From Actinomycetota bacterium (GTDB lineage Bacteria > Actinomycetota > AC-67), in assembly GCA_040905475.1 (NCBI GenBank), contig JBBDRM010000085.1:3959-67958 (forward strand): a stretch of 64,000 nt of DNA. Reading direction: 5' to 3'. A program made the translations under genes and the position numbers. Position 1 is the stretch's first letter. Every line of letters starts with the position of its first letter. Below, in pieces: positions 19,568 to 35,283 of this stretch. A model generated the notes under the pieces. It was not told the origin of the DNA and searched no databases. It was given only the letters and a program-made list of their open reading frames with translations.

Positions 19568-20536
19568 TTAGAACTCCTTGTCCGCCGTGCCGGTCTCGGT
19601 CTTCGACGAAGTCGAGCAAGCATTGCCCGCCCGGTCGGTCGCGGTGGCAGACGGCGTCCAGCTCATGTTCCCGTTGCCCCCGGCCGTGGTCGCCGCGCCG
19701 CTCTGCGTTCCGAGCGTGATCGTGATGGAATTGCCCGACATCACCATCGTCGAAGGCGTGCCGGTGGCGCCGAAGGTGCGGTTCGAGGACGTGTAGTCCC
19801 CCCGGCGGAGATCAACCGAGCCCAGGGGCAGCTGCGCCGCGTTCGAGGAGTTGTAGATCCTGACCGAGTCGCTCCCCAGCCCGAGGAGCCCGTCGTCGTT
19901 CAGGCGCACCACGACGCTGGTCGACAGCCCGTCCCAACCCGACAGGATCGAGTTCGGGTCGATCGGCTCGCTGAACGTGAACGTGATCGCGTCTCCGATA
20001 TCGGCACGACCCACGATGGAACCGCCGTTCGCGGTCTGGATGTCGGACGCTGCCGGGACGGTGTTGTCGACCACGACAGAGAATCCCGCCTGAGTCTTCG
20101 AGTTACCCTCGACGTCGGTCATCGTTACCGTGTACCCGTACGTCCCCTCGCTCAACGTACCGTTCGCAGTCAGCGAGGCGCTGCGCCGGTTGTAGCTCAC
20201 GCCCTCGACGCTGAAGGACCCGGATGCGAGCGCCACCGCGGTCTGGCCGGTGTCGATCGTGGACACGTCGGCGGTAGCGGTGGAAACGCCGCTCGCGGGG
20301 TTTCCACCGTCGGTGATGTTCGCGTAGACGTAGTAAGTGGCACCCTGCTTGATGTAGCCGGCAGAGTACCCGACGGTTTTCGCAACAACGGACTCCGAGG
20401 CGGTCGGCGCCTCCCAGTCGGCCTTGGTCGAGAACGTGTTTCCCGTGACGGGACTCGAGTCGCTGAAGAACGCGAACGCCACTCCTGCCGAAAGGCACAC
20501 CAGAAGCAGCACGAGAAGGATCGCGGCCCGGCGCAC
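19568..20536 (-). CDS. Secreted protein with a SipW-cognate-class signal peptide.
   Basis: N-terminus MRRAAILLVLLLVCLSAGVAFAFFSDSSPVTGNTFSTK matches the A[FY]F[ST]D...NTF..G motif of SipW substrates such as TasA. Confidence 0.55.
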   Translation of the reverse strand: MRRAAILLVLLLVCLSAGVAFAFFSDSSPVTGNTFSTKADWEAPTASESVVAKTVGYSAGYIKQGATYYVYANITDGGNPASGVSTATADVSTIDTGQTAVALASGSFSVEGVSYNRRSASLTANGTLSEGTYGYTVTMTDVEGNSKTQAGFSVVVDNTVPAASDIQTANGGSIVGRADIGDAITFTFSEPIDPNSILSGWDGLSTSVVVRLNDDGLLGLGSDSVRIYNSSNAAQLPLGSVDLRRGDYTSSNRTFGATGTPSTMVMSGNSITITLGTQSGAATTAGGNGNMSWTPSATATDRAGNACSTSSKTETGTADKEF

Positions 20537-20539
20537 GGG

Positions 20540-21151
20540 TCAGCCTCCCGGATCGCTCCCCAGACCCGGCGTACCCCGTACGAGCTGGTAGGTCGTTGTG
20601 GACCAGCCGAAGTCGGTCGAGTCCGACCGGCGGCGGCGGAGTCCGGCACCGACCCGCCGGCTGCGACTCTTCCGGCCCTGGCGATCGATCACCAGACCCA
20701 CGATCGGAATCAAGATGAGTGCCACGCCGCCAAGAGGTGTTCGCGCATAGCGGATCACGTGGCCGGCCAACGGCACGACGTACTCGACGCGGTGTATCCG
20801 CGCGCTGACGACCACACTCTCTGGATCCGGATCGGCATTCGCGTCGCCCTTGGTCGTAAGAGCAACCTGTCCGACCTCGTCGCTGAGGGCGACGACCCGA
20901 TGGGTGACGGTCTCGCTTTCGCCCCGACGTCGAAAGCTGACCACATCTCCGACCGAGACCGCCTTCGCCTCGACGGCTCTCGTCAGCGCGACCGAGCCGA
21001 TGGGGAGCGTGCGCCCCATGCTTCCACTGGCCACGATCAGGGACTCGAAGCCGAACAGGGTCGGGACGAATGAAAGCGCGAGGAGGAAGGTCGCGATCGA
21101 AGCGGCGGCCCACGCGACCAGGCCGAGACCCCAGCCCATCCACTTGCGCAT
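20540..21151 (-). CDS. sipW: Signal peptidase I, archaeal/eukaryotic type (S26B, SipW-like).
   Basis: An N-terminal TM, then the catalytic Ser in SGSMGRTLP, then the TKGDAN motif typical of SipW/S26B. A C-terminal TM follows. Confidence 0.6.
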   Translation of the reverse strand: MRKWMGWGLGLVAWAAASIATFLLALSFVPTLFGFESLIVASGSMGRTLPIGSVALTRAVEAKAVSVGDVVSFRRRGESETVTHRVVALSDEVGQVALTTKGDANADPDPESVVVSARIHRVEYVVPLAGHVIRYARTPLGGVALILIPIVGLVIDRQGRKSRSRRVGAGLRRRRSDSTDFGWSTTTYQLVRGTPGLGSDPGG

Positions 21152-21224
21152 TGCCTCTCCCCCCTAGCGGTCTCGATGTAGCACCCTGGTGGGCTCGCCA
21201 TACCGCGAGCCCATCAGGGAGTTC

Positions 21225-21788
21225 TTACGGGTTGTTGCTCGTCTGCTCGGCGGCGAACGTGAAGGTCGCCGTGGTGGAAAGCCCTTGCAATCCGGTGCCG
21301 GCGCCGGACGGGAGCCGCACCTGGAAGCAGAGGATCTCACTGGTGCTGGCGTCGAGCGTCCGGTCGCCCGCCTGGCTGCCCTGCGCGGCGCTCCCGATCG
21401 CGCCGGCCGTCAGCGTGCTGTCGTAGAGCGACGTCCCGTCGGCGCCGTAGCCGGCGGTCGTGCAGGTCGTCACTCCGGACTTGATCTGCAATTCGAGCCC
21501 GTCCGAGAGCACGGTGCTTCCCGAGATCCCCGTGGACATCGCGTAGCGGAGCTGCAACGTCCCGGCGTTCGAGACGGTAAGCGGCGCGGTGACCGTGTCC
21601 CCGGGAGCCATCGCCGAGAACGTCACGAGCGCGGACGTCGGCGACGTTGAGATGTCTACCGATCCGGTCGTGAAGGTGTTGGCGGCCACGTCTTGCGAGT
21701 CGGTCCAGACCGCCTGCGTGATCGCCCAAGGAGCACCGGCGAGAACGCCTGCGACGAGCAACAGGATGAAGAAGTTTCGGCGGTTCAT
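21225..21788 (-). CDS. TasA/camelysin-like exported protein with a SipW-cognate signal peptide.
   Basis: Start MNRRNFFILLLVAGVLAGAPWAITQAVWTDSQDVAANTFTTGS with a GGGG RBS 8 nt upstream. It carries the same cognate motif as 19568..20536. Confidence 0.55.
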   Translation of the reverse strand: MNRRNFFILLLVAGVLAGAPWAITQAVWTDSQDVAANTFTTGSVDISTSPTSALVTFSAMAPGDTVTAPLTVSNAGTLQLRYAMSTGISGSTVLSDGLELQIKSGVTTCTTAGYGADGTSLYDSTLTAGAIGSAAQGSQAGDRTLDASTSEILCFQVRLPSGAGTGLQGLSTTATFTFAAEQTSNNP

Positions 21789-21987
21789 GAGCTTTGCCCC
21801 TTTTCTAACAAGCAACCCGAGTGAACAACGATTCAGTCCTCGGTTGTCGCTTACCGGTTCTTTAGTTACTGATGGTGCGACCTTCGCAGGCCCCTCGTTC
21901 GGCGCATTCGCTCGTTCGGGCCACGGAAAGTGGGCGGAAACGGCCGCGGGAGGGCTGTGAGGCCCGCGCTATACTCCGCGGACCCGT

Positions 21988-22063
21988 TCCGGGGTGGCGC
22001 AATTGGCAGCGCGGCGGACTGTTAATCCGTAGGTTGCGGGTTCGAGTCCCGCCCCCGGAGCCA
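21988..22063 (+). tRNA. tRNA-Asn (anticodon GTT).
   Basis: Hand-folded cloverleaf. Acceptor stem TCCGGGG/CCCCGGA. D-arm GCGC-AATTGGCA-GCGC. Anticodon loop CTGTTAA. T-arm GCGGG-TTCGAGT-CCCGC. Discriminator G followed by an encoded CCA. Confidence 0.75.
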
Positions 22064-22210
22064 CCGACTACCTGGGTTTTCGCAGGTCACGCCCTTACCC
22101 GACCTCCGACCAACCTCTCCTAGCGCACCCTAGATCGCCCTAGAAATTCGTAGCGACAAGGTCCAAACGAGGTCCACCTCGATGGCTATCCTGGGCGGAT
22201 TTCCTTCCAT

Positions 22211-22948
22211 GTGGAACCGGAACCTCCTGAGCCAGATGCGGGGTCGATCGACGGTCTACTCGGTCTGATCGGGCGACAGCGCGATCTCATCATCGCGGTC
22301 GGTACCGGCGGCCCCGGAATCAAAACCGTCGACGACCAGTACCAAGACCGCCGACGACGCATCGCCGCTGGGCTGGCTCGCCTCGGACTCCCGGAGCCTT
22401 TCCCATGGCGCAGCTTGTGGGACTGGTACGGGTTCTATTCCGCAAACCTAGCCACGTATCAGGAACGACGGGAGCACATCCGCGAGCTCGCCGATACCGT
22501 GCTTCAGGAACTCGAACGACGCCAGACGCAAGCGACGGTCGCCGACTGGGGACAGAGCCAGGAGCCAACGTGGGACTCCCTCGAAGCGCGTCTCACCGGG
22601 CTAAAGACCGAGCTCGACGCGGCTGCGTCTCAGGACGACCTTCAGGACGTGGGTCGCCGTGCGCGCGAGACCATCATCGATGCCGCAAACCTTGTCTTCG
22701 AAGACTCCATGGTTCCGGCCGGGCAAGACGTTCCACCTGCTGGGGACGCGAAGAACCGCATCGGTTATTACATCGCGGCACGAATGACCGGACCAGCACA
22801 CGCCGAACTCCGCTCGGTCGTAAAGAAGACGCTGGAATTGGCGCACAAGGTGACCCATTCGTCAGGCATCACACGGGTCGATGCCTTCGCCGCAGCGCAG
22901 GCGACCGTGCTTGTTGTCCGCACGCTCCAAGAGATCCAGCGCGATTGA
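22211..22948 (+). CDS. Hypothetical protein (island cargo) with a HEPN-like Rx5H motif.
   Basis: GTG start. 245 aa with protein-like composition. C-terminal motif AARMTGPAH (R-x5-H). Confidence 0.4.
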   Translation: MEPEPPEPDAGSIDGLLGLIGRQRDLIIAVGTGGPGIKTVDDQYQDRRRRIAAGLARLGLPEPFPWRSLWDWYGFYSANLATYQERREHIRELADTVLQELERRQTQATVADWGQSQEPTWDSLEARLTGLKTELDAAASQDDLQDVGRRARETIIDAANLVFEDSMVPAGQDVPPAGDAKNRIGYYIAARMTGPAHAELRSVVKKTLELAHKVTHSSGITRVDAFAAAQATVLVVRTLQEIQRD

Positions 22949-22955
22949 CTGAACC

Positions 22956-23978
22956 TCACCCGGCGTCCGCGTCACGGTCGCCCGCGCGGTTGAACATCCC
23001 GTGTGGCCCCCACAACCAGAGCCGCCATTCGCCTTGCTCGATCGGCGTCACCGATTCGCCTTCGGAGTTCTCGCGAATCCAACGCATCCGACCCGGCTTC
23101 ACTCCTTCCGCAAGCGTCAGCGTCACGTCCACTTCGCACACCGCCGGAGCGTTGAAGTCAAGCGCAACGACCTCGAAATGTTGAAGATCGAATCCCTCGA
23201 ACTGGGTCCGTATTTCACCTGCCATCTTGTTCACGGACGACTCGCTGAGTTGACGGGGCACCATCGTGGCCATGCGGCCGAGGTTCTTCTCGCGCCAAGC
23301 CGCGAGGTATCGCGAGGCCGCAACGAAGACCTCGTTGGTTTCAAAACCCGCGTCGCCGGGGCGCACCGTAGATGGCGACCACGCATCGTTGGCTTTCTGT
23401 GCTTCGACGCTCTTGCGAACCTGCGCCAGCGATTCACGCAGTTTCGGCGGCTCCTTCTTCGGCTCCGCTTGTTTCGCCCTGCTCCGCGCCCAGTCCGCCA
23501 CCGCGAACAAGCGATTCCTTGCCTTCGTCGCAACGACGACGTTGTTGTAGTTGACGACCATGCCGTGGACGATTCCGTGGCGCTGAAGTTCCGACATCTC
23601 CTCCGTAACTAGCTTCTTCGTGCTCTTGATGAACGACCGATGCGCATGGCTAAGACCCCGGTGATGGCCCACCACGTCGTCCCACGCGGTCACCTCCTCC
23701 TCGGTACGAGCGTGCAGGCCGCGCCGCTCCGCGTCGACGTCGTTCACGAAACCGTCCATCACCGAAAGGAGAACCAGCGTGGTCGCGTAGAAGCGCCCCT
23801 CCGCGTAGTCCTGGGCCGCGAGGCGCACAAGGTCGAGTCGCGGTTGCATGGCGGGTAGGCTCCGCAGCCGCCCGATCATGAACCCCAACGTGTCGGGGTC
23901 GCGGTAGATCTCGATGAACTTCGCCTCGGCGCGTTCGGGATCGGTTTCCGAATCCAATATGTCCTCGACGACGTCCAT
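22956..23978 (-). CDS. Hypothetical protein (island cargo).
   Basis: Internal start MDVVEDILDSETDPE at 23978. The track ORF extends to 24218 with an Arg/Pro-rich 5' extension. No recognised domain. Confidence 0.4.
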   Translation of the reverse strand: MDVVEDILDSETDPERAEAKFIEIYRDPDTLGFMIGRLRSLPAMQPRLDLVRLAAQDYAEGRFYATTLVLLSVMDGFVNDVDAERRGLHARTEEEVTAWDDVVGHHRGLSHAHRSFIKSTKKLVTEEMSELQRHGIVHGMVVNYNNVVVATKARNRLFAVADWARSRAKQAEPKKEPPKLRESLAQVRKSVEAQKANDAWSPSTVRPGDAGFETNEVFVAASRYLAAWREKNLGRMATMVPRQLSESSVNKMAGEIRTQFEGFDLQHFEVVALDFNAPAVCEVDVTLTLAEGVKPGRMRWIRENSEGESVTPIEQGEWRLWLWGPHGMFNRAGDRDADAG

Positions 23979-24256
23979 GTTTAGCGGGTCAAGGAATCTT
24001 GTCGTCCGCGCGGAACACTGCCGTGTTGGGCTCACCCATTCGTGCCTCCCGGGTACAGCACGCCGGGAACGGGAGCCCCGGGGAAGGGGTATGCGGAGGG
24101 GTCCGCCCCGGGGGGCCCTGGCCACGATCGGTATGAGTGCATTGCCCGGAGGTGCCACCCCCGAATGGGCATTGACTTTTTGTTTTGGCGGGAGCATAGT
24201 CCCGAGGGCGGATACCACCGCAGATCGGAGAGCGCCTCCAAATAGGCGTCGGGGCC

Positions 24257-25054
24257 TTGTCGAAGAGATCTGGATCTCTCCGGGTTCACGCGCTAATGCT
24301 CATACTTGGAGTGCTGGTTGCGTGTGGTCAACCCCAAACCCCGTCGACGGCACCCTCGGCAACCGAGACGGAGGGTACGGATCCCGTTCCTACGTTCCCA
24401 CCCGTCGAACAGGGGGACGGGGAATACCCAATCTACCGGGATCCGCCTGTCCGACTCACTGCGGGGAGATACGACAGCGCCTTGGATTCGCCTGCCGAAC
24501 ATCAGGCCGGTGAACAAGCACAAGAAGCTGACGCATCGAAATCGCGCTTTCAGGGGTGGGTCGCTGGCATCTACGTAGCCCAGTTCCCCGACCCGAAGGA
24601 GGTCCAACTCTTCCCATGTGAGCGCGAAGACGTCGAGGCGCTGGGTCGGCCGAAGGACGAAGATGAGCTTCGCACGAGTCCGTTCTGGTTCGACCCTCCG
24701 TCGTACCTGCCCCCCGGTACCTTCGACTGGACGTATCCAGGAGGCGATGCATGCGGATCCGAGCCGGCATTCGGTATCTGGCGCGAGTTCCTGGTTGATG
24801 GAGGAGCGGAGATTACGATTGGTCGGTCATGGCGGCGCTATTTCCGTGGGGACTTCTCGGAGGACCGCGTGCAGAGCGGCTCGATAAACGGGCTTCCTGC
24901 TGTCATCATTCCCCCCTTCACCGCAGAAGGATATGGGGACTCCCACATCATTGTGCGGGACCCTTCTGGCGGGACGATCCAAGTCAATGGTTTCCAGCTC
25001 CCCTTATCGGAACTCCAGAAGATTGCAGAGGCTCTGGTTAGAGACCTGACCTAA
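24257..25054 (+). CDS. Lipoprotein (island cargo).
   Basis: Signal peptide with lipobox LVAC-G, then a Pro/Thr/Glu-rich linker. Confidence 0.5.
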   Translation: MSKRSGSLRVHALMLILGVLVACGQPQTPSTAPSATETEGTDPVPTFPPVEQGDGEYPIYRDPPVRLTAGRYDSALDSPAEHQAGEQAQEADASKSRFQGWVAGIYVAQFPDPKEVQLFPCEREDVEALGRPKDEDELRTSPFWFDPPSYLPPGTFDWTYPGGDACGSEPAFGIWREFLVDGGAEITIGRSWRRYFRGDFSEDRVQSGSINGLPAVIIPPFTAEGYGDSHIIVRDPSGGTIQVNGFQLPLSELQKIAEALVRDLT

Positions 25055-25078
25055 CCGACCTTCGAAACAGGCAGGGGG

Positions 25079-25787
25079 ATGAAGATGCGGGTGCGCTCAG
25101 TAGTCACGATCGTTGGTGCTCTTCTCCTTTTGGCAACTCTTTCGACGGCGCCAGCCCATGCGTCCCACCTCCGCTGGCTGGACATGAAGCCTCCCCGTGG
25201 GGAGTTACGATGGCGACGCGCACATGAACCAGGGATACCACGATCCAGAGGTCGGTGTGGACTGGGATGACGAAGACGGGGACGGAACCTGCTGCGGCGT
25301 GGGGCGCAACGTTTACTTCAATGCATGGCTCTACCGTGATGCCGCGACCACGCAGACGACGCTTTGGATCACGTACTATCAATCCAATACATCGAATTGC
25401 ACGCGCTTTCGGGCGCGGCTTTACGAGTACACGGATCTGAGTCGGATCATTGGCCACATGAATTATCGCCACGCCTATGTCGACAACCCACAACCAGCCC
25501 ACGGATGCTCGGCCAACTCTGGCGGAATAGCCTGCCGGAACACGGTTGGTCAGATCCAAACCACCACCCAGAGGAATCAATCGGGTGACACATGCGGCTG
25601 GACCGGTCCCCACCTTCACTCCGGCCACGCTACTTCAGTCTGGGGCGACTGGAGTTCGAATGTCGGTTCTCCGCCCGGCGGCATCCCGGCGAATGGTGGC
25701 GGCCCTTGGACATATCACAATCCCGGATATGAGGGCGCGGTTACAGAACGAAGCGTCCAATGGTGTAATCCAGCTGGCACATGCTGA
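25079..25787 (+). pseudogene. Secreted M23 (lysostaphin-like) metallopeptidase-like gene. Its signal-peptide ORF and body ORF are in different frames.
   Basis: ORF 25079..25270 encodes a clean signal peptide, MKMRVRSVVTIVGALLLLATLSTAPAHA. ORF 25197..25787 (frame +1) carries the HxxxD motif RHAYVD and TGPHLHSGH (compare the M23 SxHLH motif). The two frames overlap by about 70 nt, implying a frameshift or sequencing error. Confidence 0.4.
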
Positions 25788-26679
25788 ACCTGGCTGTGGC
25801 TTCTTTCTTGCTGAGACGGAACAGCCCGGCCTCCTCAAGGCCTACAACGACTCGTTCACCCAACGCGTCCAGGTTTGGCGCGTCCATTCGATCCTCCGCC
25901 AGGCCTCCGAGTACGCCGTCGAACAGCGATGGATCGACCTCAACCCAGCAGCGATCAAGCGTTATCACCCGGCTCGGGTAAGGCGTCGCCGCAAGACCAA
26001 GCTCGTTCCCTCGCGGGAACATGTTGAGAAGCTCCTCGCGGCTGCGTACGAGCAGGATGAGTCCTGGGGCTTCTTCGTGTACACGCTGGCCACGCTCGGT
26101 CTTCGCTGCGGCGAGGCGTGCGCGATGCACTGGGAGAACGTCGACTTCGAGACACACGAGGTCGAGATCGAATGGGCCGTCGCTACGCCCAAGACCGGCT
26201 GTCGCGAGCTCGGCCAGATGTTCCTGAAGGAGCCGAAGGTTGGAGAGTCGCGGACCCTGCCCATCGGATCCGAGTACTTCGAACGCGCCGCATCCCTCCG
26301 CAAGGAGGCCGGTCTCGTGTTCCCCAACCCGAAGTCTCGGGAGTCGTTGCGACCCGTTCAGGCCTCATATGGGGCCTGCCCACCGGGTCTTTGGCACCCG
26401 AACGAAGCCACCCGTCGCTTCCGCGCGATGCGGACCGCGATCGGTCTCCCGGCCTACACCCCGCACAGCCTCCGCCATTTCGTGGCGACCCAAGCACTCA
26501 TCAAGATGGAGGGCCGCTCCCTCAACCAGGTCGCCGAGTTCCTGGGTCACAGCCCACGGATGACGCTGGAGCTTTACGGATGGACGCTGGATCGCGAGGC
26601 TCTGAAGCACGTCGGGGAGACGGTGATGACGCTGGTGGACATCGACGGGATATGGCGCCCAGAGACCCGCGATCCTTAG
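25729..26679 (+). CDS. int: Tyrosine-type site-specific integrase/recombinase. The start is uncertain.
   Basis: C-terminal catalytic region ...HSLRHFVATQALIKMEGRSLNQVAEFLGHSPRMTLELYGW holds the R/H-x-x-R/H...Y motifs. An upstream core-binding-like region is present. The track start 25546 overlaps the previous gene, and 25729 (MRARLQ) is the first in-frame ATG inside the recognisable domain. Confidence 0.6.
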   Translation: MRARLQNEASNGVIQLAHAEPGCGFFLAETEQPGLLKAYNDSFTQRVQVWRVHSILRQASEYAVEQRWIDLNPAAIKRYHPARVRRRRKTKLVPSREHVEKLLAAAYEQDESWGFFVYTLATLGLRCGEACAMHWENVDFETHEVEIEWAVATPKTGCRELGQMFLKEPKVGESRTLPIGSEYFERAASLRKEAGLVFPNPKSRESLRPVQASYGACPPGLWHPNEATRRFRAMRTAIGLPAYTPHSLRHFVATQALIKMEGRSLNQVAEFLGHSPRMTLELYGWTLDREALKHVGETVMTLVDIDGIWRPETRDP

Positions 26680-26747
26680 CGATCGAATCGATCGTAGCAA
26701 CCGCTCACTGTTTGGAGCCGGGGGCTCTCTTTCGGGAGAATGCCGGC

Positions 26748-26954
26748 ATGCGATATCGGGTGTTGGTTCGGCTCAAGGCCGACCGGGTCGTCGAGCTCGA
26801 CGCGAAAGACGCCGACGAGGCCTTCCAGAAAGCAGAGGACGCGGCGTTCCCCGGCAGGCACCGGCGCGACAAGGTCAAGACCATGATCGCGCCGGGCTTC
26901 CCCAAGAAGTCCACCAAGCGCAAGACGAAGCCGAGCGTCGGCGTCCCGACCTGA
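26748..26954 (+). CDS. Small hypothetical protein with a Lys-rich tail.
   Basis: ATG with a GGGAGA RBS 8 nt upstream. Its stop is 2 nt before the alkylsulfatase start. Sequence MRYRVLVRLKADRVVELDAKDADEAFQKAEDAAF...KKSTKRKTKP. Confidence 0.3.
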   Translation: MRYRVLVRLKADRVVELDAKDADEAFQKAEDAAFPGRHRRDKVKTMIAPGFPKKSTKRKTKPSVGVPT

Positions 26955-26956
26955 AC

Positions 26957-28237
26957 ATGGGCGAGGACCTGCTCGATATCGCCGACCGCCTCTGGCGGGG
27001 CGACATCGGCATCGAGCAGCGCTTCCCGTTCGCGGCTGGGGGCGAGCGCGCCGAAGTTGCCGACCGGACTCTGTTCACGGCCTCCTTCGCCAACGTCAGC
27101 GCCTTCGACACCGATGAAGGACTCGTCCTGGTCGACACGGGCGCCGTCTTCGTCGCGAAGAGCGTGTTCGACGTGATCAGGACTTGGACGAAGGAGCGTC
27201 TCCACACCGCGGTCTACTCGCACGGCCACGTCGACCACGTGTTCGGCGTGCCGGTGTTCGAGGAGGAGGCCAGGGAGCGCAACCTCCCGATGCCTCGTGT
27301 GGTCGCGCACGAGGCGATGCCGGCACGGTTCGACCGCTACATCCTCACGGCGGGTTTCAACGCCTGGATCAACCGCCGCCAGTTCGGCGTCGACGCGCTC
27401 GAGTGGCCGACCGAGTATCGCTACCCCGACGTGACCTACCGCGACACGCTGATGCTCGACGTAGGCGGCGAACGCTTCGAGCTGCATCACGCGCGCGGCG
27501 AGACCGACGACCACACCTGGACCTGGGTGCCCGGCCGCAAGGTGCTGTGCACCGGCGACTTCATCATCTGGGCGTCGCCGAACGCCGGGAACCCGCAGAA
27601 GGTGCAGCGGTACCCGCGCGACTGGGCGGCCGCGCTTCGAGACATGGCGTCTGTGGGCGCCGAGGTGCTGCTTCCCGGCCACGGCCTCCCGATCGTGGGC
27701 GCGGAGCGGATCCGGACGACGCTGACCGATACGGCCGCGCTGCTCGAGCACCTCCACGACGAGACGGTCCGCATGATGAACGACGGAGCCCGGCTCGACG
27801 AGATCATCCACGCGGTGCGCGCGCCGGAGCACCTCATCACGCGGCCGTACCTGCGCCCGGTCTACGACGATCCGGAGTTCATCGTTCGCAACGTGTGGCG
27901 CCTCTACGGCGGATGGTTCGACGGCAATCCCGCCTCGCTCAAGCCGGCGCCGGAGGCCGCGCTCGCCCGCGAGCTCGCGACGCTCGCCGGCGGCGCGCGC
28001 GTCCTGGCGGAACGCGCCCGGGCGCTCGCGGCGGCAGGTGATCTGCGTCTGGCGGCTCATCTCGCGGAGACGGCATCGCTCGCCGATCCCGGCGACGCGC
28101 AGCTCCACGCGATCCGCGCCGAGGTCTACGAGGCCCGCGTCGCGGCCGAGCCCGCACTGATGGCGAAGGGGATATTCGGCTGGGCGGCGCGCGAGTCGCG
28201 AGCCCGCGCGTCCGAACCACAAGACCCGAGCCGGTAG
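26957..28237 (+). CDS. MBL-fold alkyl/aryl-sulfatase (SdsA1/BDS1-like).
   Basis: HGHVDH metallo-beta-lactamase motif, plus a C-terminal alkylsulfatase dimerisation/SCP2-like region (VWRLYGGWFDGNPASL). Confidence 0.6.
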   Translation: MGEDLLDIADRLWRGDIGIEQRFPFAAGGERAEVADRTLFTASFANVSAFDTDEGLVLVDTGAVFVAKSVFDVIRTWTKERLHTAVYSHGHVDHVFGVPVFEEEARERNLPMPRVVAHEAMPARFDRYILTAGFNAWINRRQFGVDALEWPTEYRYPDVTYRDTLMLDVGGERFELHHARGETDDHTWTWVPGRKVLCTGDFIIWASPNAGNPQKVQRYPRDWAAALRDMASVGAEVLLPGHGLPIVGAERIRTTLTDTAALLEHLHDETVRMMNDGARLDEIIHAVRAPEHLITRPYLRPVYDDPEFIVRNVWRLYGGWFDGNPASLKPAPEAALARELATLAGGARVLAERARALAAAGDLRLAAHLAETASLADPGDAQLHAIRAEVYEARVAAEPALMAKGIFGWAARESRARASEPQDPSR

Positions 28238-28246
28238 CATGGGCGC

Positions 28247-29446
28247 ATGGACCTGACGCCGCTCGCGATCCGCGACGCGACCACGAAGATCCTGCTCGTC
28301 GTCATGGACGGACTGGGCGGCTACGCGGACGCCGAGCACGACACCGAGCTGGAAGAGGCGCTCACCCCTCACCTCGACGCGCTCGCGGCCGAGGGGATCA
28401 CCGGCCTCGTCGAGCCGGTCGGGCCCGGCATCACGCCCGGCTCGGGGCCCGGCCACCTGGCGCTTTTCGGATACGACCCCGAAGAGTTCGAGCTCGGACG
28501 CGGCGCGCTCAGCGCCGCCGGTCTGGAGTTCGACCTCAAACCGGGCGACGTCGCGGCGCGGGGCAACTTCGCAACGATCGCGCCCGACGGGACGATCATC
28601 GACCGGCGCGCCGCTCGCATCCCCGATCCCGAGGCGTCCGTGATCGTCGAGCGTCTCCAGCGCGAGGTGAAGCTCGGCGACGGGGTGGAGGTGTTCTTCG
28701 TCCCCGAGCGCGAGCACCGCGTGCTCGTGGTCCTGCGCGGCGAGGGCCTCGATCCCCGCATAACCGACACCGACCCACAGCGGATCGGCGTTCACCCGCT
28801 CGTATCGATGGCCGCCGAGCCGTCCGCGGATCGCACCGCCGAGTTGATCAACGAGCTGTCGAACCAGGTGCGCGACCTCCTCAGTGGTGGATCGAAAGCC
28901 AACGCGCTTCTGTTGCGCGGATCCGACTCGCTGCGCGAGATGCCGTCGTTCGACGATCGGTACGGGCTGCGCGCGGCCGCCATCGCGATCTATCCGATGT
29001 ACCGCGGGATCGCGAGGATCCTCGGGATGGACGTCCTGGCGCGAACGAAGGATCTCGCCGAGCAGATCGCGGTCGCTCGCGAGGCGTGGGATCGATACGA
29101 CTACTTCTTCCTGCATCACAAGTACACGGACTCCGCGGGAGAAGACGGCGATCGGCGACGCAAGATCGCGGCGATCGAGGACCTCGACCACGTCGTACCG
29201 GAGCTTCGCTCGCTGAACCCCGACGTGATCGTCATCTCCGGGGACCACGCGACGCCGACGCAGATGGCCGCGCACTCGTGGCATCCGGTGCCGACGCTGC
29301 TCTGGTCGACGAAGGGACAGCGCGACGAGGTCGACCGGTTCGGTGAGCGTTGGTGCGCGCGGGGCGCCCTCGGCACCCGCCCGACGAAGACGCTCATGCC
29401 GGTGATGCTCGCGCACGCCGGGCGCCTGCGGAAGTACGGGGCCTAG
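28247..29446 (+). CDS. apgM: 2,3-bisphosphoglycerate-independent phosphoglycerate mutase, archaeal type (ApgM-like, alkaline-phosphatase superfamily).
   Basis: N-terminal ILLVVMDGLGG and C-terminal VISGDHATP metal-binding motifs. About 400 aa. Confidence 0.7.
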   Translation: MDLTPLAIRDATTKILLVVMDGLGGYADAEHDTELEEALTPHLDALAAEGITGLVEPVGPGITPGSGPGHLALFGYDPEEFELGRGALSAAGLEFDLKPGDVAARGNFATIAPDGTIIDRRAARIPDPEASVIVERLQREVKLGDGVEVFFVPEREHRVLVVLRGEGLDPRITDTDPQRIGVHPLVSMAAEPSADRTAELINELSNQVRDLLSGGSKANALLLRGSDSLREMPSFDDRYGLRAAAIAIYPMYRGIARILGMDVLARTKDLAEQIAVAREAWDRYDYFFLHHKYTDSAGEDGDRRRKIAAIEDLDHVVPELRSLNPDVIVISGDHATPTQMAAHSWHPVPTLLWSTKGQRDEVDRFGERWCARGALGTRPTKTLMPVMLAHAGRLRKYGA

Positions 29447-30660
29447 CGCACCATCCCCGGTATCCGGAGCTTCCCACCCGGCGGCACCAGCCAGGCGAAC
29501 AACGCGTAGCCCAGCGCGGGGAACAGCGCGAACGCCGAGGCCGGGCCCGGCCCGACCAGGACCGCCAGTCCGCCGCCGGCGATGCTCGCCAGTGCCTGCC
29601 CGCCGAGCAGCATGCCTTGCAGCAGTCCGAATGCGGTCGCGCGGATGTCCGCGGGCAATCGCGTGCCGACGACGGCGTACGCGGGGATCACCATGGCGAA
29701 CACGACTCCGATCGAGAAGTACCCGGCGGCCGCCCAGTAGTTCGGCGGCTCGATCAGGAACCACAGGATGCCTCCGGCGGTTCCCAGCATGATGACGAGC
29801 GCCGAGGTTCGGAGCAGATCATCCGGCTCGCCCTGGCGGCGCACGAGAACCGACGCGAGGATCGTGCCCACCGGCACCGTCGCGGCCAGGATCCCGATCG
29901 CCGCGTCGCCGTAGCCGCTCAGGTTCTCCCGCACGTACACCACGACGAGCGCTTCCGCGACGATCGCGCACGAGGCACCCACGGTCGCGAGGCCGGCCGC
30001 GCGCCGCAGATACGGGTCGCCCAAGATCGTTCGTGCGCCGGCCTTGAGGCTCGCCCCCACCGAAACGATGGGCCGGCCGACGCGACCCCCGGCGAGGAAT
30101 CCGAGCAACAGAGCCGAAAGCCCGAAGGTCGCCGCGTTGACAACGAGCGCGCCCTCCGCGCCGACGGCGACGACGAGCCCTCCGCCGGCTGTGTATCCGA
30201 GCACGAGCACCACCTGATAGGTGATGTTGCTCAACGCGAGCGCATCGCCGTAGTGCTCCTCGGAGACGACCTCGGGTAAGAAGGCCGCCCGGGCGGCCTC
30301 GAACGGAGGCGTCGCGGCGGCCCCCAAAAACGCCAGCACCAGCAGGAGCCAGGCGGGTTCGACCGCGAGCATCACGAGGAACATGCCGCCGCGAACCAGA
30401 TCGGCGACGATCATGACCGTTCGGCGGGGGAAGCGGTCGCCGAGCGCGGCCAGCGCCTGGCCGAGCCCCACCCAGGGAAGCAGTCCGACGCCCGTCACCG
30501 CCGCGGTGAGCAGCTTCGAGCCGGTCCGGTTGTGCACGAGGACGGCGAGCGCCACCCGTGCCGCCCAGTCCCCGAGCTCGCTGAGGATCTGCGCCGACCA
30601 CAGCAGCCGGAAGTCGCGATGCTGAAGGGCTCGGAACAGGCTGCCCGTCCTTGCGCTCAT
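29443..30660 (-). CDS. MFS transporter.
   Basis: Twelve TM helices. Start MSARTGSLFRALQHRDFRLLW at 30660. The track 5' extension is Ser/Arg-rich. Confidence 0.65.
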   Translation of the reverse strand: MSARTGSLFRALQHRDFRLLWSAQILSELGDWAARVALAVLVHNRTGSKLLTAAVTGVGLLPWVGLGQALAALGDRFPRRTVMIVADLVRGGMFLVMLAVEPAWLLLVLAFLGAAATPPFEAARAAFLPEVVSEEHYGDALALSNITYQVVLVLGYTAGGGLVVAVGAEGALVVNAATFGLSALLLGFLAGGRVGRPIVSVGASLKAGARTILGDPYLRRAAGLATVGASCAIVAEALVVVYVRENLSGYGDAAIGILAATVPVGTILASVLVRRQGEPDDLLRTSALVIMLGTAGGILWFLIEPPNYWAAAGYFSIGVVFAMVIPAYAVVGTRLPADIRATAFGLLQGMLLGGQALASIAGGGLAVLVGPGPASAFALFPALGYALFAWLVPPGGKLRIPGMVR

Positions 30661-30770
30661 CCCCACGTCTCCCGACCCCGTAGTCGATGGTCGCGGTATC
30701 TTCCCACGGGCGGGGCTACTCCCCCGCGAGGCCGGCAGGGACGCGGAGCGCAGACATCGAAGACTCTCGG

Positions 30771-31685
30771 ATGAAGTCGTCGAGTGTGGCACGGCCGGCC
30801 GTGGTTCTGCTCGTCCTTGCCCTCGTGGCCCCGGGACTCGCCGGTGCCGACCATCCGCTGGGCAACATCCCCTGGAGCACCCTGCTACCGCCGCACCCCG
30901 GCGTGACCGCGCCCGCAGACCCCGCGATCCCTTGCGGCGAGCACCCGACGCCGGCGTGCGTCGATCAGGTCATCGACGACATGGTCGTGAACTGGGAACC
31001 ATGGGACGCGTCGTGCGACCCGCGCGCGGTGTTCGCGCTCACCTACCTGCTCACCACCGAGGCGTTCCGCGAGACGATCGAGGACACGGGCTTCTTCCAG
31101 GACAACGACGGCATCATCAACCTCGATCGCGTGTTCGCGGACCTCTTCTTCGCGGCCGTCGACGGCTATGAGAACGGAACCGCCCCGCCGGCATGGAAGG
31201 TCGCGTTCGATGCGGCGACGAGCGGACGCACGAACGCGGTGCAGGATGTCTTCCTCGGCATGAACGCCCACATCCAGCGCGACCTCCCGGTGGCGCTCGC
31301 CGCGGTCGGTCTCGTCCAAGCCGACGGAGCCAGCCGGAAGTCCGATCACGACGCCGTGAACGAGATCCTTTCCGATGTCCTCGACCACATCGAGGACGAG
31401 ATCGGCCGGCTCTACGATCCGATGGTCGCGCTCGCCGACGCGAAACCATCGCCGGTGGACGAGGTGGGAGCCCTCGAGCTGCTCAAGTCATGGCGCGAGG
31501 GCGCGTGGCGGAACGCCGAGCGTCTCACGCTGGCCCGCTCGAACGCAGAGCGAAACGTGGTGATGGCGCAGATCGAGGCCTACTCGACGATCTGGGCGAC
31601 GGTCATCGCGGGCCCGGACTTCAGCTGGTACGAGGCCCGGCGCTTCGCGTACTGCACGGCGGCCCACCAAGCGACGCAGCCGTAG
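30771..31685 (+). CDS. Secreted hypothetical protein.
   Basis: Start MKSSSVARPAVVLLVLALVAPGLAG (signal peptide). Conserved-looking NAHIQRDLP motif. No function assigned. Confidence 0.45.
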   Translation: MKSSSVARPAVVLLVLALVAPGLAGADHPLGNIPWSTLLPPHPGVTAPADPAIPCGEHPTPACVDQVIDDMVVNWEPWDASCDPRAVFALTYLLTTEAFRETIEDTGFFQDNDGIINLDRVFADLFFAAVDGYENGTAPPAWKVAFDAATSGRTNAVQDVFLGMNAHIQRDLPVALAAVGLVQADGASRKSDHDAVNEILSDVLDHIEDEIGRLYDPMVALADAKPSPVDEVGALELLKSWREGAWRNAERLTLARSNAERNVVMAQIEAYSTIWATVIAGPDFSWYEARRFAYCTAAHQATQP

Positions 31686-31724
31686 CGAGCGCGCGTTACG
31701 GCGGGTCCCTGCTTCTCGCGTCGC

Positions 31725-31994
31725 CTAGTTGCTCCAGGTCGACAGCGGCCCGGCCTCGAGCGCGAACGCTGCTTCCCAGACCGCCGCAAGGGCGAGCGGC
31801 CCGATCGAGCCGAGCTCGGCGAGGCGGTCCGTTGCGCTCGGTCCGTATCCCGAATCCGCGATCGTGGTCAGATTCAGGGAGCGCGACGAGACCGCGGGGT
31901 AGGTCCTGGCAGCCGGAGCGAAGGGCTCACCTTGGTAGGAGACGTTGCGCGGCGCGCGGGTGCGGAGCGCCTTCGGTTCCTTCTGCGATCCCAT
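31725..31994 (-). CDS. Possible small protein (89 aa).
   Basis: Third-position GC is about 85%. A GGAGGA RBS lies 4 nt upstream of the ATG. No homology recognised. Confidence 0.3.
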   Translation of the reverse strand: MGSQKEPKALRTRAPRNVSYQGEPFAPAARTYPAVSSRSLNLTTIADSGYGPSATDRLAELGSIGPLALAAVWEAAFALEAGPLSTWSN

Positions 31995-32250
31995 CCGGTC
32001 CTCCGTCGATCCTCGTCGTCCCGGTCGCCCCCGAAAACTGGAGCGAGGCCCCCGTTTCCGGGGGCCTCTCCCTGCAAGGAACCGAGGTCCGGTTCCACCC
32101 CCCGCAGGATGCAGGTACTCCCCCGCTGGTTTCGGAAAGTGCGTGTTGCCTCAGGTATTCCATCGGAAACGAGGGGGCCCTCAACAGTTGCACCTGCTTC
32201 AAACCGAGATGGGACGGATGCACTATTCCGGGGGGTGCTATTCGCCCCCG

Positions 32251-32769
32251 TCAGCCGGTCTGGCGGGCCCGTTCCTCGACCGCGACGCGGAAGGAGCGGA
32301 GGAACGTAGCCATCGTCGCCTCGGTTGCCAGCGATGCGGCCTTCGCGTCCGATAGGTCGATAACGGTGGACGGCAGCGCGTATGAGCCTTCGACCAGCAT
32401 CTCGCACGCGCGGGCCGAGACGCGCCTGACCACGATCCGCCCGGCGTAAGACGACGGAACCCAATGGAAGCCTGCGGTACGCCAGCGCAACGGTACGACG
32501 AGCTCGTCCCGGTCATCACCCGGAACCGCCGGAAGGAGGTCGACCGTGAGCTGCCGGCTCCCCGGGCGCGAGGTCAGGCGAAGGGAGCGTCCGGCGGCCG
32601 CCTCCCCCGCGTGGGTGGCGATCCGCAGGAATGCCACGACCCAGTCGGCCGGCCTGACGGACAAGAGCTCCGCCAGCTCGTCGAACGGCCTGTCGATCCG
32701 TACGGTCCCCGTTGGCGACATCGTTTCCCCGAAGACGCCCGGTGCCGAGGGCACCGAGTCTCCGACCAT
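32251..32769 (-). CDS. Hypothetical protein.
   Basis: 172-aa ORF with protein-like composition. The start could instead be the internal MSPTGTV. Confidence 0.4.
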   Translation of the reverse strand: MVGDSVPSAPGVFGETMSPTGTVRIDRPFDELAELLSVRPADWVVAFLRIATHAGEAAAGRSLRLTSRPGSRQLTVDLLPAVPGDDRDELVVPLRWRTAGFHWVPSSYAGRIVVRRVSARACEMLVEGSYALPSTVIDLSDAKAASLATEATMATFLRSFRVAVEERARQTG

Positions 32770-32829
32770 TGACGCACCCGCGGCCGGGGGCGGCCAGATT
32801 CAGACGCACTATCCGGGGCTAGTACAGAT

Positions 32830-33480
32830 TCAGGCTTGGCGGAGGATGCCCTCACGCACCGCGGTCGCGACCGCCTCGAGCTTGGAGTGAGCGCCCAGTT
32901 TGCCGATCACGTTCTGCACATGGTTGCGCACCGTGTGCAGGCTCAGGACCAAGCGTTCCGCGATCGCCGCGTTCGACAAGCCTTCTGCGAGGAATCTCAA
33001 GATCTCCATCTCGCGGGGGGTCAGATCCACGCCGTGGCCCTGCTCCTTGCGACGGAGGCGAGGCAGGAGCCGCGCCAGCATCGAGGGCGAGATGAGCGCT
33101 TCACCCGAGTGGGCGGCGCGCACGGCGCTCTCGACTTCACCGATCGCCTTGTGCTTGGTGATGAAGCCCGAGCACCCGGCCTCGATCGCGCGAACCAGCA
33201 CCGCCTCGTCGTCGAAGGAAGTGACCATGACGACCTGCACCGACGGAACCTCGGCCTTGATACGTTCCGTCGCCAGCACGCCGTCACCGTCGGGAAGCTC
33301 GTAATCCATGAGGACCACATCGGGCGCGTGCATGCGAACCGCTGCGCACCCCTCTTCAACGGTTCCGGCCGAGGCGATCACTTCGATATCGGACTCGGCC
33401 CCAAGGGCGGCTCGAAGTCCCTGTACGAGCATCTCGTGATCGTCGACGATGACGACGCGGATCGGCAGAGTGGTTTCCAT
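32830..33480 (-). CDS. NarL/LuxR-family response regulator.
   Basis: Start METTLPIRVVIVDDHEMLVQGL holds the receiver Asp pocket. The C-terminal LuxR helix-turn-helix is LTPREMEILRFLAEGLSNAAIAERL. Confidence 0.8.
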   Translation of the reverse strand: METTLPIRVVIVDDHEMLVQGLRAALGAESDIEVIASAGTVEEGCAAVRMHAPDVVLMDYELPDGDGVLATERIKAEVPSVQVVMVTSFDDEAVLVRAIEAGCSGFITKHKAIGEVESAVRAAHSGEALISPSMLARLLPRLRRKEQGHGVDLTPREMEILRFLAEGLSNAAIAERLVLSLHTVRNHVQNVIGKLGAHSKLEAVATAVREGILRQA

Positions 33481-33540
33481 CACCTTGTTTCGTTCGGCTC
33501 GCGGAGTGCGCGAGCGTAGCAGCGGAGAGGCCGCTCTCGG

Positions 33541-35283
33541 TTGCTGAACGGAAAAACCATAGACGAACGGTACACTCTGCGCGTGGTTCCCCCCACACCG
33601 CAAGCTGCCGCCTCCCCCTCGCAGCTGCGGCTCCGCCTCTTGCTGCTCGTTCTGCTTGCGGTGTTGCCCGCGCTGTTGCTCGTCGGGATCAGCGCGATCC
33701 GCAATCGGAACACGCTCGCGGAACAGGTCGAGGAGAACGCGCTTCGGGTTGCCCGTTTGTCGGCAGCCGGCCACGAGGCGGCGATCGAAGGCGCGCGACA
33801 GTTCCTCACCGCGCTCGCGCGTGTCCCGGAGGTGCGGTCGGGCAGCGCATCACGTTGCGAAGCGCTCGTGCGGGACCTCCTCGTGCAGTTCCCGGATTAT
33901 CTGAACTTCGGGCTTGCCGATCTTCCCGACGGCGAGCTCACGTGCAGCGCGGTCCCGGCTCGATCGACCGTGACCGTGAAGGATCGAGCCTATTTCCAGC
34001 GCGCGGTTCAGACAGGTGGGTTCGCCGTCGGCGACTTCCTGATCGGCCGGGTCACCGGACAACCGGCGCTGACGTTCGGGATCCCGGTGCTCGACGACCG
34101 GGGTGGCCCGCGCGCGATCGCGTTCGCGGCGATCTCACTTCAGGTCTTCGAAGACGTCGCCACGAAAGCCGCCTTGCCCGAGGGATCGTCGGTCGTCGTT
34201 GTCGATGGCAAAGGGACCGTTCTCGCGCGCGTTCCCGACCCGCTCGGGCTCGTCGGCAAGACCCTCCCGGAGGAAGCGCTCGTGAAAGCGGTTCTCGCGC
34301 GTCCGCAGGGCACGGTCGAGGTGGCCAGCTTCGACGGCGTGCGCCGGCTCTACGGATTCACGCGCCTGCAGGGCGGCGGTGACGTGTCCGTCGCCGTGGG
34401 CATCTCGAGCGCGGCGGCGTTCGCCGACGTGGATCGCACGTTCTGGTTCGGCGTGACCGGGCTCGCGCTGGTCGGGATCCTGGCAATGATCGCGGCGTGG
34501 TTCTTCGGGAGGGCGTTCGTCGTCCGTCCGGTTACGTCCGCTCTGCGAGGTGAGCGGCAAGCCGTCGAGCGTCTCGAGCAGGTCGATCAGATGCGGACGG
34601 ATTTCGTCTCGATGGTCTCCCACGAGCTTCGCAATCCGCTCGCCACCGTTCGAGGGTTCGGCCAGTTGCTCCGGGATCGGCCCGAGTCGCTCCCCGACGA
34701 GCAACGACATCAAGCCTACGAGGTGATCGTGCGGCAAGTGGACCGCATGGCGTCCCTGATCGACAACGTCCTCGACGTGTCGCGCCTCGAGTCCGACACG
34801 TTCTCCTACGCGTTCGTTGCTTACGAACCGGCGCGACTCCTCGATGAAAGCGCGGAGGAGGCTCGCGGCGCCTGGCGGCAGCACCAGCTCGTCGTCGACT
34901 CGCCCGACGGTCTTCCGACCGCGAAGGGCGACTCCGACCGCTTGAAGCAGGTGCTCCTGAACCTCGTGTCCAACGCCTGCCGCTACTCGGCAGAAGGAAC
35001 CACGGTGACGCTACGCGCGCGGAGCGTCGGCACGAACGTGCGCATCGACGTCGTCGACGAAGGACCCGGCATACCTGCCGAGAGCCTCGCGCTGCTTTTC
35101 CACCGGTTCGCGCGGCTGCGGACTCCAGACGCGCAAAACGTACGCGGCACCGGGCTCGGGCTCTACATCAGCCGTCGCATCGTCGAGGCGCACGGCGGAC
35201 ACATCACGGTCGAGAGCGAGCCGGGCCGCGGGTCGACCTTCTCGGTCGAGGTTCCTATCGACCCACCGCAGCCGGGAACCTAG
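33541..35283 (+). CDS. Sensor histidine kinase with a periplasmic Cache-like domain.
   Basis: Two TM helices flank an extracytoplasmic domain. HisKA H-box SHELRNPL. HATPase motifs DEGPGIP and GTGLGL. Confidence 0.75.
   Translation: MLNGKTIDERYTLRVVPPTPQAAASPSQLRLRLLLLVLLAVLPALLLVGISAIRNRNTLAEQVEENALRVARLSAAGHEAAIEGARQFLTALARVPEVRSGSASRCEALVRDLLVQFPDYLNFGLADLPDGELTCSAVPARSTVTVKDRAYFQRAVQTGGFAVGDFLIGRVTGQPALTFGIPVLDDRGGPRAIAFAAISLQVFEDVATKAALPEGSSVVVVDGKGTVLARVPDPLGLVGKTLPEEALVKAVLARPQGTVEVASFDGVRRLYGFTRLQGGGDVSVAVGISSAAAFADVDRTFWFGVTGLALVGILAMIAAWFFGRAFVVRPVTSALRGERQAVERLEQVDQMRTDFVSMVSHELRNPLATVRGFGQLLRDRPESLPDEQRHQAYEVIVRQVDRMASLIDNVLDVSRLESDTFSYAFVAYEPARLLDESAEEARGAWRQHQLVVDSPDGLPTAKGDSDRLKQVLLNLVSNACRYSAEGTTVTLRARSVGTNVRIDVVDEGPGIPAESLALLFHRFARLRTPDAQNVRGTGLGLYISRRIVEAHGGHITVESEPGRGSTFSVEVPIDPPQPGT

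Follow-up and report, generated by a model that had tools for sequence, protein, structure and literature searches.

A probable remnant of a tRNA-Asn-linked integrase element in Actinomycetota, with cargo from unnamed protein families

The 64,000-nucleotide (nt) stretch of an Actinomycetota bacterium considered here (assembly GCA_040905475.1, contig JBBDRM010000085.1, positions 3,959 to 67,958; termed the window, with positions counted from its first letter) contains, next to a tRNA-Asn gene, an insertion of 4.66 kb at approximately 22076-26738, referred to below as the islet. It is probably what is left of a small tyrosine-integrase element that has become immobilised, and is patched together from a crippled integrase and three independent cargo units (gene A, gene B and the gene pair C–D). 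Only A, which encodes a protein with a predicted HEPN-like fold, and C, which encodes a lipoprotein, look intact. D, the gene for a secreted M23-like metallopeptidase, is frameshifted, B has lost its 5′ end and so, it appears, has the integrase. The original prediction for this DNA, made from its letters, was of an integrative island with an M23-like peptidase and lipoprotein as a plausible bacteriolysin-immunity pair, and with a divergent pair of unknown genes. The island, the M23-like character and frameshift of D, and its linkage to a lipoprotein gene are supported; the divergent pair is not, and the expectation of a working defence or antagonism module at this locus was over-optimistic.

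Insertion 3′ of tRNA-Asn

The tRNA-Asn (anticodon GTT) at 21988-22063 on the forward strand, previously folded by hand, is confirmed by ARAGORN, and is the sole tRNA in the window. It anchors the insertion on the left and has 0 differences over its 76 nt when aligned with the counterpart in L008, the closest relative (~88% nucleotide identity). In that relative the tRNA-Asn is followed by about 75 nt and then by the same two genes that lie beyond the islet in the window, and so represents an empty site. The first of these, orf69 (26745-26954, forward strand; 69 amino acids (aa); GC content at third codon positions (GC3) 0.90), is the first native gene past the islet and in relatives it is kept beside the second, an MBL/alkyl-sulfatase-like gene. 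By blastn, window 21216-22075 corresponds to L008 24-883, and window 26739-33695 to L008 959-7895, i.e. L008 holds ~75 nt where the window holds 4663 nt. It is because this alignment breaks at 22075 and resumes at 26739 that the insertion is placed at ~22076-26738. In the left junction zone (22064-22115), colinearity stops at 22075, with weaker similarity possibly extending to ~22110; the right junction zone (26680-26738) lacks a copy of the tRNA 3′ end. The empty-site comparison that had been proposed as a means of defining attachment (att) sites has thus set the boundaries, and no att repeats came with them.

Another relative, L007 (83% protein identity), holds 850 nt at the insertion position and retains the tRNA-Asn/MBL linkage, as does L011. 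With the flanking MBL/alkyl-sulfatase-like protein (26957-28237) as query, 80 orthologous loci, one genome per species, were gathered, and relatives of A, B, C, D or the integrase are present in 0 of the 80. Since the same genes at native GC are absent from the orthologous loci, the segment was acquired horizontally and is not ancestral, as had been supposed.

The composition of the islet was also as anticipated, with a lower-GC segment running from the tRNA-Asn to the tyrosine integrase. GC is 0.620 for 22076-26738 versus 0.678 in the remaining window, and this is the window's lowest-GC stretch of 4.66 kb (~3 standard deviations under the mean). Along the window, the flanks are at 0.66-0.73 and the region from ~21750 to 26700 at 0.58-0.65. 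For GC3, the islet genes have 0.64-0.80 versus 0.87-0.90 for flanking genes; within the islet, C and D are at 0.64, and A, B and the integrase at 0.70-0.80.

In L011, which is a related metagenome-assembled genome (MAG), the tRNA-Asn at 7725-7800 is followed, before orf69 and the MBL gene, by partial copies of the tRNA 3′ end at 8486-8517 (32 nt, 97%) and 9302-9363 (63 nt, 90%). These stacked partial copies are att remnants and mark the tRNA-Asn junction as a recurrent integration hotspot in the clade.

A separate assembly, the Logan assembly of SRR27977661 (contig L001), is 100% identical to the window over 22035-26495. Its two ends, one inside the tRNA T-arm and the other inside the integrase 3′ region, resemble branch points of an assembly graph, a sign that the sample may contain further copies of tRNA-Asn or related integrases.

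An integrase apparently without its N-terminal part

The open reading frame (ORF) ending at 26679 encodes a tyrosine-recombinase catalytic domain (PF00589, E 2e-11; PHROG_1, E 2e-30), in which the catalytic R, HxxR, H and Y are all present as read from the sequence. It is on the forward strand, is at most 316 aa from the ATG at 25729, and overlaps the end of D by 59 nt; similarity to phage integrases begins only at ~25774. In tblastn comparisons the alignment starts at residue 95 of the 370-aa integrase of Thermus phage Cumys and at residue 127 of the 393-aa integrase of Mycobacterium phage ZM2. Upstream coding room in the islet is just 15-26 residues, and these overlap the conserved 3′ end of D. 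Compared with these distant phage integrases (28-30% identity), the islet integrase would be short by ~80-100 N-terminal residues.

There is no other copy of the tRNA 3′ end in the window, with up to 3 mismatches allowed, and a search of shared k-mers of 10 nt or more for att repeats gave nothing at the right junction and none of 12 nt or more near it. [At 26712-26740 the minus strand reads GAGCCCCCGGCTCCAAAC, which resembles, in inverted orientation, the tRNA-Asn 3′ end plus the bases downstream of it in L008, possibly by chance. The same nucleotides also fold as a small hairpin (GGAGCC-GGG-GGCTC) with TTTC after it, which may be the terminator of the integrase gene.]

A lipoprotein gene and a divergent M23-like peptidase gene

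Gene C (24257-25054, forward strand; 265 aa, or 252 aa from an alternative start) was correctly expected to encode a lipoprotein next to the peptidase. By eye, it has a signal peptide and lipobox, ...LILGVLVAC followed by GQP, with the lipobox LVAC placing the cysteine at residue 23; homologues have LLAAC then A, or TLVAC then G. D follows on the same strand, in two parts. Its start codon, signal peptide (MKMRVRSVVTIVGALLLLATLSTAPAHA) and first mature residues are at 25079-25196, as judged by three-frame translation against an intact homologue, L006. The M23-like metallopeptidase domain, with H-x6-D, YRH and GPHLH, is at 25197-25787 and is out of frame with its own signal peptide.

None of A, B, C and D matches any family in Pfam, NCBIfam, PHROGs or PADLOC, in agreement with the earlier failure to name the cargo, and the PADLOC check that had been recommended yielded just sub-threshold noise (E 0.005 and 0.08), with no known or candidate defence system. 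A single-sequence search of PDB with C was also without a match, and a Pfam scan of 4 members of its family produced only noise. D is no easier to place by sequence similarity: neither PF01551 nor any other Pfam model matches any of 8 close or 86 distant members of its family beyond noise, and a profile from the 86 sequences has no match in PDB, M23 chains included.

What identifies D is its pattern of conserved residues and its predicted fold. Across the 86 members W51, H52, D59, C105, H129, C170, H176 and H178 (P0242 numbering) are invariant or nearly so, and they include, in order, H(x)6D, a further His and HxH. In M23 peptidases, H(x)nD, with H-to-D spacing of 3 to 12, is followed by a further His ~30-50 residues before HxH (PMC9662197). 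The D motifs fit M23 because H(x)6D-His-HxH is the order that defines the family. Structural modelling is in keeping with this, the predicted fold being the M23/LytM β-sheet fold, of M23A-like type. The window copy has the complete set (GYH...GVD, YRH, GPHLH). Of the motifs pointed out originally, the HLH is indeed conserved, but HxxxD, whose sole literal occurrence is HAYVD, is not the metal motif; the family pattern is H-x6-D (GYHDPEVGVD), YRH and HLH. The family also has an invariant segment, DWDDEDGxGTCC, and some of its wider members have dockerin or TSP3 extracellular modules.

The D family is tiny. There are 8 clusters among 5.8 billion at 90% identity, and a profile search found 87 representatives among 1.84 billion at 50% identity. 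In JGI metagenome contigs there were pattern matches to D relatives, none of them confirmed, and no D was found on plasmids.

Directly upstream of every D homologue with readable context is a homologue of C, so that the linkage seen in the window is kept in other lineages. Identities to the window for C and D, respectively, are 52% and 61% in L006, 58% and 71% in L088/L089, and 41% and 43% in L176. The pair occurs in four other contexts and the flanking genes differ in each; since it recurs with unrelated flanks each time, C–D is a self-contained two-gene cassette without a recombinase. Within the islet the cassette occupies precisely the interval from the truncated 5′ end of B to that of the integrase, and no other islet genes have a GC3 as low.

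The frameshift in D

A split of the peptidase gene by a frameshift, with the signal-peptide ORF starting at 25079 and the remainder at 25197-25787, had been noticed originally and is borne out by intact homologues of 229-233 aa that span the break. Where intact L006 encodes KPPVGSYDGD, the window has AAG CCT CCC C GTG GGG AGT, with one extra C in the run at 25193-25196. The Logan assembly of SRR27977661 carries the same extra C. The GTG at 25197 corresponds to the V of the conserved PPVGS, and restarting there would yield a peptidase without a signal peptide.

D is also broken in L088 (1385-1415) and L089 (575-605), two codons further on, by a gain of 2 nt or loss of 1 nt. The two lineages are frameshifted independently, at sites no more than two codons apart where the signal peptide meets the mature domain. 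Programmed frameshifting was considered and rejected, as the two broken lineages would need opposite shifts and there is no slippery heptamer.

Two convergent genes, A and B

Gene A (22211-22948, forward strand) and gene B (22956-24059, reverse strand) had been described as divergent. They are in fact convergent and lie tail to tail, with 7 nt between their stop codons. Their products are identical to those of WEB06_09010 and WEB06_09015, two records of an Actinomycetota MAG which between them cover A and B. Of the two sizes first given, 245 aa holds for A, which is intact, and the ~340 aa of B proves to be that of a 5′-truncated copy of a family of ~415 aa.

Of the two helical domains of the A protein, one is HEPN-like. 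The family to which the protein belongs has no name and is found mainly in Actinobacteria. Its HEPN-like domain is modelled as a four-helix fold; the A family profile had no match among PDB sequences, and a Pfam scan of 44 members gave noise only, with no HEPN match. The canonical Rx4-6H motif of HEPN proteins (PMC3710099) is absent from A, where the only invariant His (H216, in KVTH) is without an Arg 4-6 residues upstream. Residues invariant in the family are Q145, D146, G148, R149, R150, R152, E153, R201, T215, H216, Q230, T232 and R237.

The surroundings of gene A homologues point to mobile and defence-related DNA. From 80 metagenomic loci, 56 had enough upstream sequence for a tRNA to be seen, and in 5 of the 56 there is one directly upstream on the same strand as the A homologue (Lys three times, Pro and Thr once each). 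L004 likewise has a tRNA directly upstream, and an Agromyces islet with an A homologue has a tRNA-Gln and an integrase fragment. In a tally of 120 ORFs from 25 loci, the commonest Pfam families near A were ResIII, Phage_integrase, DUF3644, the type I restriction-modification families HsdR and N6_Mtase, Eco57I, YgjP-like, Peptidase_M78, relaxases and PLDc_2. One genomic A locus is ~5.6 kb from a GmrSD gene. A is found on plasmids of Dietzia, Prescottella, Rhodococcus, Clavibacter, Kocuria, Arthrobacter, Mycobacterium, Rhizobium and Haliscomenobacter, and not in IMG/VR viral contigs. It has no conserved partner: when 195 neighbouring ORFs were clustered, no family was present in more than 4 loci. 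[On Dietzia plasmid pDK313-83 (L178 4222-5723) the first 4 nt of the A homologue are shared with a YfbU-family gene, and there is one YfbU match among the metagenomic A neighbours.]

For B, the ORF from the ATG at 23978 is 340 aa, and homology to its family, with 586 homologues of ~415 aa, extends to approximately 24059, starting somewhere in ~24000-24059. The conserved N-terminal ~60-70 residues of the family are missing from the window in every frame. Extending the ORF to the GTG at 24218 (420 aa) does not supply them, as the added part has no similarity to the conserved N-terminus. The B family profile is without a match among PDB sequences, and a Pfam scan of 47 members gave noise apart from weak matches of the C-terminal part, in some members, to NTF2-like families (MecA_N, DUF4440). 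R209, G211, H214 and G215 are invariant in the 47 sequences. The consensus ELYRNGIVHG is an Rx4H with N after the R, and the window copy reads ELQRHGIVHG, in which the Rx4-6H motif with a polar residue after the R is present. On this motif B might be a HEPN protein. The family has, in addition, many further invariant polar residues outside ELYRNGIVHG.

B homologues are found in an islet adjacent to tRNA-Ser with MNT-HEPN and SIR2_2 genes (L003), near PIN and sigma factor genes (L002), with a PIN gene nearby (L173), and in a Streptomyces region that is rich in hypothetical genes and has Mrr_cat and Lsr2 (L171/L172). They occur on plasmids of Streptomyces, Rhodococcus, Prescottella and Acidovorax, and none was found in IMG/VR viral contigs. 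[On the P. equi virulence plasmid pVAPN1572 (L177 5004-8309) a YfbU gene is 1.3 kb from the B homologue.]

Co-occurrence of A and B in other islands, one of the checks proposed initially, was not borne out: among the loci examined, the two do not co-occur. No A gene neighbours the B homologues of L002, L003, L171 and L173. By hhalign the A and B families are unrelated, and the convergent neighbours of B in L003 and pVAPN1572, considered as distant relatives of A, are also unrelated to it. One distant B-like neighbour is known. In metagenomic L093 (2497-4732) an A homologue is followed by an overlapping 471-aa ORF that matches the B-family profile in its central part (E 6e-15), and this is the only other A/B-like adjacency among ~30 A-family loci with flanks.

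Proposed history and other explanations

The order of events that we infer starts with insertion of a small tyrosine-integrase element just 3′ of the tRNA-Asn. Arrival of C–D, or a deletion associated with it, would then have removed the 5′ ends of both B and the integrase, and D would have been inactivated later by the +1 C slip. The integrase would have kept its catalytic domain and lost its N-terminal DNA-binding part, and because no att repeats remain, excision is probably no longer possible. On this reconstruction gene A would encode an intact stand-alone protein whose relatives travel on islands and plasmids and in restriction-modification neighbourhoods; it would perhaps act in RNA- or nucleotide-directed conflict, of abortive infection (Abi) or toxin type, with a non-canonical active site. 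B would be a stand-alone gene with an RNxxxH motif that has lost its 5′ end.

Several considerations weigh against this account of a decayed patchwork. The broken genes still look recent or partly functional. B remains an uninterrupted ORF of 340-420 codons, all the M23 catalytic residues of D are intact, and those of the integrase are present; some expression, or read-through of the D frameshift, is therefore conceivable. The truncation of the integrase is judged from phage comparators that are distant, and Xer-like recombinases as short as ~300 aa exist. The two assemblies that agree on the D frameshift may share reads. That C–D caused both truncations is deduced from geometry and GC3, and two separate deletions would look alike. 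As to the HEPN assignments, that of B is by motif, and A is without the Rx4-6H motif.

If the D frameshift were not inactivating, whether as a sequencing artefact or because of ribosomal frameshifting or restart at GTG 25197, the cassette would be functional in this genome. The intact catalytic residues and the coincidence of that GTG with the V of PPVGS would fit, and the break of L088/L089 within two codons of the same position could mean a recoding or phase-variable site. However, the extra C is agreed by two assemblies, opposite shifts are needed in the two lineages with a slippery heptamer in neither, and restart at the GTG would leave a cysteine-rich peptidase without a signal peptide stuck in the cytoplasm; a functional D in this genome is accordingly regarded as unlikely. 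Another alternative, in which the element is intact and has a working bacteriolysin/immunity module, with D cleaving the peptidoglycan of competitors and C protecting the producer, is judged quite unlikely. Its attractions are the M23A-like fold, complete catalytic residues and signal peptide of D, the position of C, always directly upstream of D in five lineages, and the dockerin or TSP3 modules in the wider family. Against it, in the window the signal peptide of D is out of frame with the catalytic domain, the att sites are gone and the integrase is truncated. Moreover C resembles neither FemABX-type immunity factors nor any other family, and its linkage to D would equally suit a chaperone, anchor, inhibitor or substrate role.

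The possibility that A and B form a two-gene defence or toxin-antitoxin system, and are the real cargo of the islet, is very improbable. They are adjacent, with their stop codons 7 nt apart, each has a HEPN link (A by fold and B by motif), and in L093 a distant B-like protein follows an A homologue. But the convergent arrangement means that they are not an operon, B is truncated in the window, its homologues in four other loci (L002, L003, L171 and L173) do not have A as neighbour, L093 is alone among the ~30 flanked A-family loci in having a B-like neighbour, and the genes convergent with B in L003 and pVAPN1572 are not A relatives. Extremely improbable is an ancestral segment whose low GC is local variation only. 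The absence of att repeats is the sole point for it, and it is refuted by the empty sites in L008 and L007 with their otherwise colinear flanks; the cargo is moreover absent from all 80 orthologous loci and its GC3 is lowered by 0.1-0.25. An immobilised remnant with three independent cargo units is the preferred explanation.

Other features near the junctions

Between the tRNA and gene A there are two copies of CCCTAGA (22128-22144, forward strand; copies at 22128 and 22138, 10 nt apart). The pair was remarked upon initially, and these are the only copies in the window. CTAG is otherwise scarce nearby. The pair might serve as an operator, or might once have been an arm site of the integrase.

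The left flank has, at 19568-21815 on the reverse strand, genes for a secreted Big_13 Ig-like protein, an S26 (SipW-like) signal peptidase and a secreted Peptidase_M73/camelysin-like (TasA-like) protein, i.e. a cluster of SipW/TasA type in an actinobacterial MAG. At least its tRNA-proximal end, the M73 gene in 21216-22075, is colinear with L008, whose contig ends there.

Known systems and significance

Integrative elements of actinomycetes, of the pSAM2 type and with phage-like tyrosine integrases, are a natural comparison for the islet, and degraded tRNA-linked islets are common. It shares with tRNA-targeting integrative islets its insertion 3′ of a tRNA, the distal integrase, lower GC and absence from relatives. 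It differs from them in that the tRNA 3′ end is not duplicated and genes for an excisionase, replication or transfer are absent, in that its integrase apparently lacks the N-terminal domain, and in the partial pseudogenisation of its cargo. The islet can probably no longer move or deploy its own peptidase.

The closest known systems to D are the M23A peptidases pseudoalterin (6ik4), LasA/staphylolysin (3it5) and beta-lytic protease. The H-to-D spacing is x12 in LasA and x3 in LytM versus x6 in D. Unlike these peptidases, D has no sequence match to Pfam Peptidase_M23 or PDB M23 chains, it has the DWDDEDGxGTCC segment, it always has a lipoprotein partner, its origin is actinobacterial and in the window it is frameshifted. 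In being a gene for a secreted M23-fold enzyme that is genetically linked to a second gene, it is reminiscent of lysostaphin/Lif and zoocin A/Zif. Immunity factors known for M23 bacteriolysins are FemABX-like enzymes of the cytoplasm, which modify the cross-bridge of the peptidoglycan (cited in PMC9662197), whereas C is a predicted surface lipoprotein of no detectable family. For A, the closest known systems are minimal HEPN/UPF0332 proteins and HepT toxins (2hsb, 1wwp, 3mfn, 5yep, 7ae2, 8xdj). In place of their Rx4-6H it has an invariant TH and an RRxRE helix; it also differs from them in its extra N-terminal four-helix domain, in having no MNT partner and in lacking a Pfam HEPN match.

The value of the islet is as a pointer to three protein families that are unnamed in Pfam, NCBIfam, PHROGs and PADLOC. 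One is a rare secreted peptidase of M23-like type with a lipoprotein always encoded ahead of it. Another, widespread in Actinobacteria, is a protein of HEPN-like fold and non-canonical motif, found on plasmids and islands and beside restriction systems, and the third is a large family with an RNxxxH motif.

Most interesting is the C–D cassette, with its rare unannotated M23A-like enzyme and obligate lipoprotein partner. Tentatively, and with considerable doubt, D can be proposed to be a secreted bacteriolysin, M23A-like but highly divergent, that is neutralised at the wall of its producer by C, a surface lipoprotein dedicated to this role. The two together would be an undescribed, recombinase-less mobile antagonism cassette of Actinobacteria. 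If so, the mode of immunity would be one not known for M23 bacteriolysins, whose known factors are FemABX-like, and the repeated breakage of D at its signal-peptide junction in two lineages would reflect the cost of the toxin. Such a lysin/immunity pair would show a principle of immunity that is new for M23 enzymes, and it might supply lytic enzymes against the cell walls of Actinobacteria.

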